This document shows positions 4,502 to 46,078 of a stretch of DNA of 64,000 bases, in pieces; the first letter of the stretch is position 1; every line of letters begins with the position of its first letter. This DNA is from Candidatus Limnocylindria bacterium (GTDB lineage: Bacteria > Chloroflexota > Limnocylindria > P2-11E), in NCBI GenBank assembly GCA_046262615.1, contig JBHEML010000004.1:5596-69595 (forward strand). Reading direction: 5' to 3'. Below the pieces are notes generated by a model. That model ran no database searches, was not told where the DNA came from, and worked only from the letters and a program-made list of their open reading frames with translations. Both the position numbers and the translations under genes were made by a program.

Positions 4502-5268
4502 TCACGCTGAAGACGCCGGCGGATACGGCGCGGATGCGGGAAGCGGGCCTGGTGGTCGCGGCGATGCTGGCGCGATGCCGCGCGGCGCTGCGTCCGAGCA
4601 TCACCACACTCGAGCTCGACCGGATCGCGGCCGAGGAGCTCCGGCGCCACGGCGCGACGTCGTCGTTCCTCGGCTACTACGGCTACCCCGCGACGATCTG
4701 CACCTCCGTCAACGACGAGATAGTCCACGGGATCCCGAGCCGACGGAAGCTCCGCGAGGGCGACATCGTTGGCATCGACGCCGGCGCGATCGTCGACGGA
4801 TGGCACGCTGACGCCGCCATCACGCTGCCCGTTGGCGAGGTCGCGCCCGAGGCGGCGCGCCTGATGGCGGTCACCGAGGAGGCGCTACGGCGCGGGATCG
4901 CTGCCGCGAGGGTCGGGGGCCGTCTCGGCGACATCGGAGCCGCAGTGCAGCGCCACGCCGAGAGCGAGGGCTACTCGGTCGTCCGCAACTACGTCGGGCA
5001 CGGGATCGGACGGGCGATGCATGAGGAGCCCCAGGTGCCGAACTACGGAGCTCCTGACCGGGGCCTGGCGATCCGCGAGGGGCTCTGCATCGCCATCGAG
5101 CCGATGCTGAACATCGGCCAGCCGGGCACGCGGACGCTCGAGGACCAGTGGACGGTGGTGACCGCCGACGGCAGCCTCTCGGCGCACTTCGAGCACACGC
5201 TCTGGTGCACCGCCGCCGGGCCTGTGGTGCTCACGGTGGCGGACGGGTCGGAAGCGGTCGCCGCATGA
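4498..5268 (+). CDS. map: type I methionine aminopeptidase
   Basis: GYYGYPATICTSVNDEIVHGIP...DGWHADAAIT...VGHGIGRAMHEEP. GTGA overlap with adk. Confidence 0.96.
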   Translation: MITLKTPADTARMREAGLVVAAMLARCRAALRPSITTLELDRIAAEELRRHGATSSFLGYYGYPATICTSVNDEIVHGIPSRRKLREGDIVGIDAGAIVDGWHADAAITLPVGEVAPEAARLMAVTEEALRRGIAAARVGGRLGDIGAAVQRHAESEGYSVVRNYVGHGIGRAMHEEPQVPNYGAPDRGLAIREGLCIAIEPMLNIGQPGTRTLEDQWTVVTADGSLSAHFEHTLWCTAAGPVVLTVADGSEAVAA

Positions 5269-5380
5269 CCGTTCGGCGTACGGTCGCTGGCACCGTGTGC
5301 GTGGAGGGTGCCGCCATGCCCGCCCCGAGCGCGCCGGCCGCCGCACGAGCGGACATGGCGTATTTGCGCGCAGCCAAGGG

Positions 5381-45525: not shown

Positions 45526-45769
45526 CGCTCGAGATGCTATGCGGAGCACACCGTCACGCTCACGGTGGGGGCGGGATCGCGGCTGCCGCAAATGGACGCG
45601 TACAGCGATATGTCGCGCGCTTCTTCGGCTCGCACGATCTTCGGTTCCATGAACGCTCCGTTCGCGGCCGCGGTCGGACTCGTGACAGTAGAATGGCCGC
45701 TCGGAGCGGACACTCGGAGCGGCACGACGGTCGTGCGGAGAGAGCAGGTGAGGTAAGCTCCGCTAACGT

Positions 45770-46043
45770 TCCTCGGTAGCTCAGCGGTAGAGCAGGCGGC
45801 TGTCGATGGCAGCCCTCTGGGGAAACCCAGGGGTGTAACTGGGTGAATTGACGGGAACCCTAAAGCGCGCAAGCGCCATGGCGATCCGCAGCCAAGCCCG
45901 GAGAAACGCTCCGGGAAGGTTCAGAGACTATGCGCCCGGCACCTAAGACCGCACGGGTGATGGTGAAGAGATAGTCCGTGCCCGGGGGAAATCCCGGGGT
46001 TCATGTAACCGCTTGGTCGGAGGTTCGAATCCTCCCCGAGGAG
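45770..46043 (+). tRNA. tRNA-Asn (anticodon GUU) interrupted by a group I intron. Exons are 45770-45803 and 46006-46043.
   Basis: Joined exons give a perfect 72-nt cloverleaf: acceptor UCCUCGG/CCGAGGA, D-arm GCUC-AGCGGUA-GAGC, anticodon stem GGCGG/CCGCU, loop CU-GUU-AA, T-arm GGAGG-UUCGAAU-CCUCC, discriminator G73. CCA not encoded. Confidence 0.9.
45804..46005 (+). ncRNA. group I intron (small IC3/Azoarcus-like, ORF-less, 202 nt)
   Basis: 5' exon ends in U paired to G (P1 GGCUGU 45798-803 / GCAGCC 45809-14). Last intron nt is G (46005). P2-P9 can all be drawn. Core CAGAGACUA (45922-30) pairs with UAGUC (45972-76). Confidence 0.88.
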
Positions 46044-46046
46044 CAC

Positions 46047-46078
46047 GATCGGCACGCACGGGCGTGCCGATCACTTTC
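46047..46078 (+). terminator. hairpin after tRNA-Asn (candidate intrinsic terminator)
   Basis: Perfect 11-bp stem GATCGGCACGC/GCGTGCCGATC with 4-nt loop (46047-46072), followed by ACTTTCG. The U-tract is short. Confidence 0.4.

Follow-up and report, generated by a model that had tools for sequence, protein, structure and literature searches.

What interrupts the anticodon of a tRNA-Asn gene in a member of the Limnocylindria, and does the interrupted gene work? The question is raised by a 64,000-nucleotide (nt) stretch of contig JBHEML010000004.1 (hereinafter the window), which belongs to the metagenome-assembled genome (MAG) of a Candidatus Limnocylindria bacterium (GenBank assembly GCA_046262615.1) and in which a tRNA-Asn(GUU) gene at 45770-46043 of the plus strand is split within its anticodon, between nt 35 and 36. 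We conclude that the intervening 45804-46005 is very probably a functional group I intron that has a minimal Azoarcus-like architecture, lacks an open reading frame (ORF) and parts G34 U35 from U36; its self-splicing activity and tertiary contacts we infer from the sequence. A search with Rfam cmscan recovered Intron_gpI (RF00028) at 45794-45998(+), where the score of 70.2 bits exceeds the gathering score (50) at E 8.8e-16, the full model being matched, and this is the sole group I match in the window and in the whole 2.17-Mb MAG. The segment, C45804...G46005, has 62% G+C and holds no ORF wholly within it, and no maturase-like gene is present either in the intron or next to it. The elements that define a group I core are all there: helices P3-P8, among which P3 and P7 form the pseudoknot, the nucleotide bulged from P7, and the joining segment J8/7. 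The splice sites likewise follow the group I rule, with a U45803·G45809 wobble at the 5′ site and a terminal guanosine, G46005 (omega-G). Among homologues, the 5′ wobble is U·G in 58/61, and 63/63 solved copies end in G, though the solver that placed their boundaries demanded a terminal G.

The exons define these boundaries. The 5′ exon reads UCCUCGG-UA-GCUC...GAGC-A-GGCGG-CUGU (acceptor strand UCCUCGG, D arm, anticodon-stem strand GGCGG and loop nucleotides C32 U33 G34 U35), and the 3′ exon reads UAA-CCGCU-UGGUC-GGAGG...CCUCC-CCGAGGA-G (stem strand CCGCU, variable loop UGGUC, T arm, acceptor strand CCGAGGA and discriminator G46043); CCA is not encoded, G46043 being followed by CAC. Joined, they yield the loop CUGUUAA with the anticodon GUU, and a strict cloverleaf solver returned a single best solution with precisely this junction (CUGU/UAA). 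The U1-A72 body and the discriminator G73 are typical traits of bacterial (E. coli) tRNA-Asn, which makes the body Asn-like. The position of the break is further marked by metagenome contigs from other organisms, whose similarity to the 5′ exon ends exactly at 45803/45804 and which run straight on into TAACCG; these are uninterrupted tRNA-Asn genes that mark the empty site. An earlier sequence-only reading of the window had proposed a 202-nt ORF-less intron with the same ends, and the solver and the empty-site break bear it out. We relied on the strict solver because passing every possible spliced junction to ARAGORN by brute force told us little, that program accepting nearly anything. At default settings ARAGORN detected no tRNA at 45770-46043, and with introns allowed it called a tRNA-Tyr(GUA) with a misplaced intron. 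The latter call is ruled out by the 5-nt variable loop and the Asn-like body, and we rejected it because CUGU/UAA is the only junction that puts U at -1 and lets the intron end in G. As a pitfall for annotation, a MAG annotated with ARAGORN would thus appear to be without tRNA-Asn.

Is the interrupted gene then the working one? Neither ARAGORN nor a search with the pattern CTGTTAA...TTCRA (0 matches) uncovered an uninterrupted tRNA-Asn in the window's 84%-complete assembly, while the same pattern has exactly one match in each of seven intronless relatives tested; intron-bearing relatives that are 90-95% complete are likewise without any uninterrupted tRNA-Asn. Because intron-bearing genomes are devoid of an uninterrupted copy and intronless relatives have exactly one, we take the interrupted gene to be the working tRNA-Asn gene, and since the sole tRNA-Asn gene is the interrupted one, splicing should be essential. 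One might instead regard the locus as a relic in decay, its tRNA a pseudogene and its intron inactive, with the functional tRNA-Asn in the unassembled 16% of the genome. The MAG, at 83.9% completeness in 229 contigs and with about half of the expected tRNA species missing from the assembly, offers room for such a gene; however, all core elements and tRNA stems are intact, the intron and exons are conserved across genera with compensatory changes, and the counts in intron-bearing and intronless relatives speak against it, so that we consider a relic very improbable. The compensation extends to the tRNA itself: the acceptor strands UCCUCGG, UCCCCGA, UCCGGUG and UCCCUGG each occur with a matching 3′ strand.

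Within the intron, P1-P9 and their joining segments account for all 202 nt, with no P2.1, P5abc, P7.1/7.2 or P9 extensions, and all 61 proposed pairs are standard in the window sequence (Table 1). P1 can be extended by C45804-G45808 over a GAU triloop, and RNAfold indeed gives a 7-bp P1 with this triloop. P4 encloses J4/5 (AAC), the P5 receptor CCUAAA(G)...(C)CAUGG (45859-65, 45876-81), in which C45859 C45860 pair with G45880 G45881, and the covarying P5a hairpin GCGC-GCAA-GCGC (45865-76). In P7, 45926-30 pair with 45972-76, and G45924 pairs with C45977 beyond the bulged A45925. The helices read by eye in the sequence-only reading were thus all recovered where it had placed them, every pair being standard; for P8, its receptor motif was correctly positioned, but the helix is two pairs longer (45940-43 with 45962-65) than it had drawn. 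Folding with RNAfold, which that reading had named as a check, fails to give the core: the minimum free energy fold of the whole intron is non-native (z = -2.05), because the core is a pseudoknot.

Table 1. Features of the interrupted tRNA-Asn gene (window coordinates) and loci with related introns in other genomes.
Feature	Position or locus	Strand	Description and basis
tRNA-Asn 5′ exon	45770..45803	+	nt 1-35; cloverleaf solver and sequence reading
Group I intron, 202 nt, no ORF	45804..46005	+	Rfam RF00028; custom model R1, 229 bits
P1	45798..45814	+	45798-803 with 45809-814, GGCUGU(C) with (G)GCAGCC; L1 GAU; sequence reading
P2, 7-8 bp, L2 GAAA 45822-25	45815..45832	+	45815-21 with 45826-32; 7/7 pairs covary, 61 sequences
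P3 5′ strand	45839..45845	+	with 45933-45939, pseudoknot with P7; 4/7 pairs change on both sides
P4 with enclosed P5/P5a	45849..45890	+	P4 45849-55 with 45885-90, A45851 bulged; P4 invariant
P6	45892..45919	+	45897-903 with 45909-15, CC/GG outer pairs, loop AAACG; 7/7 inner pairs covary
P7 5′ strand, guanosine-binding helix	45924..45930	+	G-A(bulge)-GACUA with 45972-45977; 96.8% of cells pair
P8	45940..45965	+	receptor CCUAAG 45942-47, GAUGG 45959-63; helix base covaries (CA/UG, UG/CA, CG/CG)
J8/7 AAGAGA, into UAGUCC	45966..45971	+	agrees with Rfam consensus gAAGAUAUAGUC; invariant in family
J7/9 GU	45978..45979	+	P9.0 with A46003 U46004, just 5′ of terminal G46005
P9, 7 bp, L9 GAAA 45988-91	45981..45998	+	45981-87 with 45992-98; 7/7 pairs covary
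tRNA-Asn 3′ exon	46006..46043	+	U36 A37 A38 onward; sequence reading, cloverleaf solver
11-bp perfect hairpin GAUCGGCACGC-ACGG-GCGUGCCGAUC	46047..46072	+	read by eye; 3 nt past the tRNA
Type-B tRNA-Asn loci	L008-L011, L013-L017, L120, L216, L233, L270, L292		e.g. L010:1465-1780:+
rRNA-gene group I introns	L019, L021, L025 (relatives G009, G016); also L018, L020, L022-L024, L026, L027		
HNH-bearing introns	L066, L069, L074, L085, L103, L116, L134		L116: ORF 4910-5281
HNH-bearing introns, further	L140, L144, L149, L153, L159, L167, L168		
Planctomycetota tRNA(CAU) introns	L062, L068, L076, L083, L093, L107, L109, L110, L113, L123		
Planctomycetota tRNA(CAU) introns, further	L126, L128, L129, L132, L138, L160, L163, L170, L172		

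Covariation among homologues, a check that the sequence-only reading had named along with alignment to Rfam, supports the same helices, and the full model of RF00028 is matched. A MAFFT alignment of 12 Limnocylindria copies, from which we built the covariance model R1, has 97.9% of its cells paired compared to 28-49% in slid controls, with 15 pairs changing on both sides. Model R1 in turn recovered 49 further tRNA-Asn introns from other phyla (52.6-137.8 bits), each matched end to end. In a 61-sequence alignment of tRNA-Asn introns from several phyla fitted to R1, 93.9% of cells pair (31-42% in slid controls), 745 cells show two-sided changes (mean after shuffling, 206), and the covariation score of 0.48 drops to 0.14 when shuffled; none of 500 shuffles reached either value. 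P2, P5a, P6, P8 and P9 covary at nearly all pairs and P3 at four of seven. P4 and P7 hardly vary, as one would expect of the catalytic core; P7 lies outside model R1, yet is paired to the extent given in Table 1. The short P9.0 pairing behaves alike: across 62 tRNA-Asn introns, 113/124 positions are paired, a figure attained in 0/2000 shuffles, which average 88.9.

The periphery resembles that of Azoarcus. As the sequence-only reading had claimed, L2 and L9 are both GAAA tetraloops and P8 and P5 each contain a near-canonical 11-nt receptor that departs from consensus. In the canonical numbering of this motif (C1 C2 U3 A4 A5 G6 / U7 A8 U9 G10 G11), the P8 receptor CCUAAG/GAUGG differs from CCUAAG/UAUGG at a single position, U7 to G, and the P5 receptor CCUAAA(G)/(C)CAUGG has A45864·C45877 in place of the G6·U7 wobble. 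A·C can form a wobble that is isosteric with G·U. Since family members such as L012, L008 and L011 have a fully canonical P8 receptor, the GAUGG of the window is a derived variant. The parts of the motif that contact GAAA are the C2:G10 pair, the U3·A8 handle and the A4-A5 platform (PMC2275092), and these positions are intact in both window receptors. In Azoarcus, the contacts are TL2-TR8 and TL9-TR5 (10.1101/037895). The Azoarcus partner arrangement put forward by the sequence-only reading agrees with the 61 homologues, in which the type of loop goes along with the motif in just those helices: with L2=GAAA, the P8 motif is present in 26/33 as opposed to 10/28 with other loops (Fisher p=8e-4, kinship ignored), and with L9=GAAA, the P5 motif is present in 47/52 as opposed to 5/9 (p=0.02, kinship ignored), while the crossed pairing L9/P8 has no association (p=0.73). 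Hence, the fold is probably clamped by docking of L2(GAAA) with P8 and of L9(GAAA) with P5, as in Azoarcus, to judge from these associations. An alternative would keep the secondary structure and have peripheral contacts unlike those of Azoarcus, with motifs that no longer dock or with L2 and L9 docking elsewhere. In favor of this, G·G takes the place of the canonical G6·U7 in the P8 receptor, an additional A or an A·C pair is found in that of P5, P2 falls short of its Azoarcus counterpart, and many homologues with GUAA or GCAA in L2 carry no P8 motif, because of which the clamp would be dispensable within the class. Against this stand the retention of all GAAA-contacting residues in both receptors (PMC2275092) and the enrichment of the motif in the Azoarcus-type partner and not in the crossed one, and we accordingly regard different contacts as unlikely.

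By established group I chemistry, the 5′ exon end GGCUGU would pair with the guide GCAGCC to form P1, placing the U45803·G45809 wobble at the splice site; a free guanosine bound in P7 would attack after U45803; the terminal G46005, positioned by P9.0 (GU 45978-79 with AU 46003-04), would then enter the same guanosine site; and U35 would be joined to U36 to give the loop CUGUUAA. The intron might be real and nonetheless depend in the cell on a protein cofactor or chaperone, as is the case for many group I introns of organelles. A weak P10 (by eye, just U·G and A-U) and the non-canonical receptors would be in keeping with such help, though nothing in the sequence demands it. The complete core, the two tetraloop/receptor pairs and the G+C content, together with the lack of a maturase-like gene in or beside the intron, argue for autonomous splicing, and closely similar minimal bacterial tRNA introns are reported to self-splice in vitro (Reinhold-Hurek and Shub, 1992, as well as Tanner and Cech, 1996); cofactor dependence is therefore quite unlikely in our estimate.

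Several points weigh against this reading of the locus as a whole. The window's MAG is incomplete, and a second tRNA-Asn gene could exist. The 61-sequence alignment was fitted to the structure of the model and thus leans towards that structure, and the loop/receptor statistics take no account of phylogeny. Neither receptor conforms to the canonical 11-nt motif, and P2 lacks 2-3 bp relative to that of Azoarcus, for which reason the docking geometry is a predicted one. Finally, we found no RNA sequencing runs matching the intron sequence, the best matches being DNA-like contigs of relatives.

The genes that flank the tRNA are unrelated to the intron: upstream lies a GNAT acetyltransferase on the minus strand, and downstream a small ORF of unknown function and a glcD-like FAD oxidase. 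The hairpin just past the tRNA (Table 1) is followed by ACUUUCG, offering a weak U tract only, and is kept in L002, L007, L015 and L016; it is possibly a terminator or a processing signal, though a scan for the intrinsic-terminator consensus did not call it and found no terminator. On the 5′ side, -10-like hexamers occur at 45689-45694 (TAGAAT, 76 nt upstream of the tRNA) and at 45754-45759 (TAAGCT, 11 nt upstream). A sigma-70 consensus promoter scan gave no site. In relatives, TAGAAT, TAGACT or TAAACT lies approximately 12-15 nt ahead of the tRNA 5′ end, a spacing that suggests a very short leader.

How widely is this kind of intron distributed? Group I matches were obtained in 19/61 relatives, all of them in the window's family or its sister family, and in none of 22 genomes from other families of the class; 17 of the relatives' matches represent a tRNA-Asn intron at the identical site. 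A same-genus contig, C24 of relative G001, is GenBank JBBQVQ010000024.1 (Candidatus Limnocylindria bacterium). The other Limnocylindria group I introns that we checked reside in rRNA genes, a 23S gene containing as many as three of them and a 16S gene containing one at its 3′ end (Table 1). A pattern scan of 185,579 species genomes matched at least 119 contigs. At least about 55 of the matches listed are short tRNA-Asn CUGU/UAA introns of 181-465 nt, hosted by approximately 30 Patescibacteria and 11 Gammaproteobacteria among those listed, the others being Omnitrophota, Planctomycetia and Chloroflexota. At least 14 longer tRNA-Asn CUGU introns (515-630 nt), from MAGs of Patescibacteria, Omnitrophota and Gammaproteobacteria, have in their P1 loop an ORF of about 120 aa for an HNH endonuclease, which separates the guide sequence from the 5′ splice site (phrog_2255, E 9e-28; the Pfam HNH match falls below its cut-off). 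The CANCH codons of this ORF (GCT AAC TGT CAC) mimic the CUGU strand of P1 and misplaced the 5′ boundary of the model. A closely related core, with the same CCGCAGCC...AAGGTTCAGAGACTA motif, is present at position 36/37 (CUCAU/AA) of a tRNA(CAU) with the acceptor strand GCGGCCC in Planctomycetota, with at least about 22 such introns among the matches listed; two of their hosts, Tundrisphaera lichenicola P12 and Paludisphaera soli JC670, are cultured strains and would lend themselves to experiments. The same core also turned up in two further MAGs, one of Proteobacteria, where it sits in a tRNA-Lys(CUU) (CUCUU/AA), and one of Saccharibacteria, where the tRNA(CAU) that contains it is initiator-like (CGCGGGG...CCCCGCAA) (L115, L143). 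For the tRNA-Asn class, more than 75 examples came to light, with over 60 short and 14 HNH-bearing copies in other phyla. The window copy is hence an ORF-less member of a mobile and widespread class.

Among these relatives, at least five sister genera within the window's Limnocylindria family display a variant, which we term type B, in which the sole tRNA-Asn gene has 4-10 extra nucleotides (C...R-Y-G) between U33 and G34, 2 nt 5′ of the intron. It is found in 9/17 family copies, a GenBank MAG contig (L120) and four further distinct metagenome sequences, the last from a pattern scan with 120 matches of which most were by chance, amounting to 14 distinct sequences. Their layout is ...GGCU-[CAUG, CACG, CGUG, CCACG, CCGUG or CAAAACCGUG]-GU-N-AAG-GGCAGCC.... 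Because these genomes, up to 95% complete, have no other tRNA-Asn gene that we could find, and because the tRNA stems and ribozyme cores are intact with compensatory changes, the type-B gene must work. Three regularities suggest that the same ribozyme removes the insert as RNA. First, an alternative P1 register, pairing G31 C32 U33 C(+1) with GGGC at the start of the guide, places U33 in a U·G wobble next to which, on the intron side, stands a C-G pair, the same local geometry as GU/C with GGC in the window's P1; RNAfold picks this register in 3/4 type-B sequences folded. Second, the insert begins with C and ends with G in 14/14. Third, the two nucleotides before its final G are complementary to J7/9 in 14/14 and change together with it (AC with ...GUG in four sequences, GU or AU with ...AUG or ...ACG in ten), thereby obeying the P9.0 rule of genuine 3′ ends, though the independent co-changes are few, probably one double switch and several compatible C/U changes. 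Excising the insert on paper restores a 7-bp P1 of the window design with an AAG triloop. We tentatively propose, rating this just below an even chance, that the insert might be a mini-intron without a core of its own, located at 33/34 and trailed by a micro-exon of 2 nt (G34 U35), and might be cut out first by the neighboring ribozyme. The ribozyme would accordingly splice twice, removing the mini-intron, which would recreate a window-type P1, and then itself; under this hypothesis, the window intron would be the state without the insert. Such chemistry is plausible because engineered group I ribozymes excise G-terminated segments, down to 1 nt, in trans by means of P1, P9.0 and P10, a reaction known as trans-excision-splicing (TES; PMC2532722).

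We rejected several other interpretations of the insert. A CAU, CGU or CCU anticodon with splicing after nt 35 would have the anticodon vary within an invariant Asn body and a -1 nucleotide other than U; a tRNA-Thr(NGU) with the intron at 33/34 would have a G ahead of NGU in only 5/14; retention in the mature tRNA would make an anticodon loop of 11-17 nt and of variable length; and pairing with the 3′ tail is precluded by a lack of complementarity. In a tree of ribozyme cores, the window's genus (L001, L007) groups beside type-B variants with weak support; it shares J7/9 GUG with many type-B copies and the exact 3′ tail UUCAUG with L009 and L015, and the presence of the insert needs at least two changes on this tree. 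Were the mini-intron proposal true, group I excision-splicing would have its first natural example, an in-cis counterpart of engineered TES with a 2-nt micro-exon inside an anticodon, and a simple system would be at hand for asking how a ribozyme chooses between overlapping P1 registers. This sister-genus variant is a larger point than the window copy, the value of which is itself modest: it is a compact, G+C-rich, ORF-less ribozyme, with receptors closed by G·G or A·C in place of G·U, a natural variant that could serve in work on folding and thermostability, and a reminder that default tRNA finders overlook such interrupted genes.

How, then, does the intron compare with known systems? It is not new as a kind. 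According to Williams' 2020 preprint (bioRxiv 10.1101/2020.01.27.920355), 5292 bacterial tRNA group I introns were mapped to 21 settings, with a terminal G in 98.5% of cases, and the seed Pam37.Asn.4Ug represents the window's setting. Like that seed, the window intron has a tRNA-Asn(GUU) host, an insertion after the fourth loop nucleotide (CUGU/...g/UAA), a -1 U in a U·G wobble, a final G, a P1 of CUGU/GCAG and a P3 of the NNGGGUG/CGCCCNN type, and the end-to-end matches of the Limnocylindria-built R1 to 49 tRNA-Asn introns of other phyla attest to their homology; it differs in being 202 as opposed to approximately 270 nt long, in being devoid of the seed's extra hairpin between P7 and P3′, and in its host, a member of the Chloroflexota (Limnocylindria). 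Because site 4 recurs in the Tyr, Asp and Lys settings listed there, there is nothing unusual in itself about an insertion at 35/36. The claim that this is an independent natural variant is thus not sustained insofar as it implied rarity, the class Asn.4Ug being already catalogued and widespread. Reviews of 2014 and 2024 list bacterial tRNA group I introns for cyanobacteria and alpha/beta-proteobacteria only, and a literature search for tRNA-Asn with a group I intron returned, under those terms, only organellar or irrelevant papers; the host range given in the reviews is outdated, the class being common in Patescibacteria, Gammaproteobacteria and Chloroflexota.

The pre-tRNA-Ile(CAU) intron of Azoarcus sp. 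BH72, of subgroup IC3, is like that of the window in its length of approximately 200 nt, absence of an ORF, location in a tRNA anticodon loop and richness in G+C. Comparison with the Azoarcus olearius row of Williams' seed alignment gives an identical order of elements from P1 to P9, 70% identity over 188 aligned nt, and GAAA in L2 and L9 with CCUAAG/UAUGG-type receptors in P8 and P5 at the same helix positions (CACCUAAG...AUGGUG). The Azoarcus intron differs in its host (Ile2/CAU) and site (36/37, as opposed to 35/36 of tRNA-Asn), in its core (J3/4 AAA, P4 UUCGGCG and P7 GUAGAGACUA, where the window has AAU, UGACGGG and UCAGAGACUA), in a P2 of about 10 bp compared to 8, in a P9 of 5 bp compared to 7, and in that both of its receptors are canonical and neither of the window's is. 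The identity to Azoarcus is about equal to that with the cyanobacterial and plastid tRNA-Leu(UAA) intron, also of subgroup IC3 (72% to the Synechococcus seed over 174 nt), which has the same general architecture in a tRNA anticodon loop but is inserted at 34/35, is longer, has extended P6 and P9 helices and belongs to another host lineage. Absence of P5(a-d) is a trait of IC3 (PMC11835236), and the reduced periphery of the window intron, with P2 and P9 hairpins only, accords with that type; in contrast, its core lacks the signature of the four classical bacterial IC3 tRNA introns (AAA, UUCGGGG, GUAGAGACUA), which is our own reading of Williams' seed alignment and not an official definition, and is nearer to the general Rfam consensus than to those four introns. 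The description of the intron as minimal and Azoarcus-type therefore stands for architecture, element order, loops and receptors, and does not extend to a classical IC3 core sequence or to the length of P2; we use the term for the architecture and probable mechanism, and not as a formal IC3 assignment. Type B, for its part, is most akin to the TES reactions of the Testa laboratory, in which a group I core likewise removes a short internal segment ending in G and rejoins its flanks (PMC2532722); those are engineered and act in trans, whereas type B would be natural and in cis.

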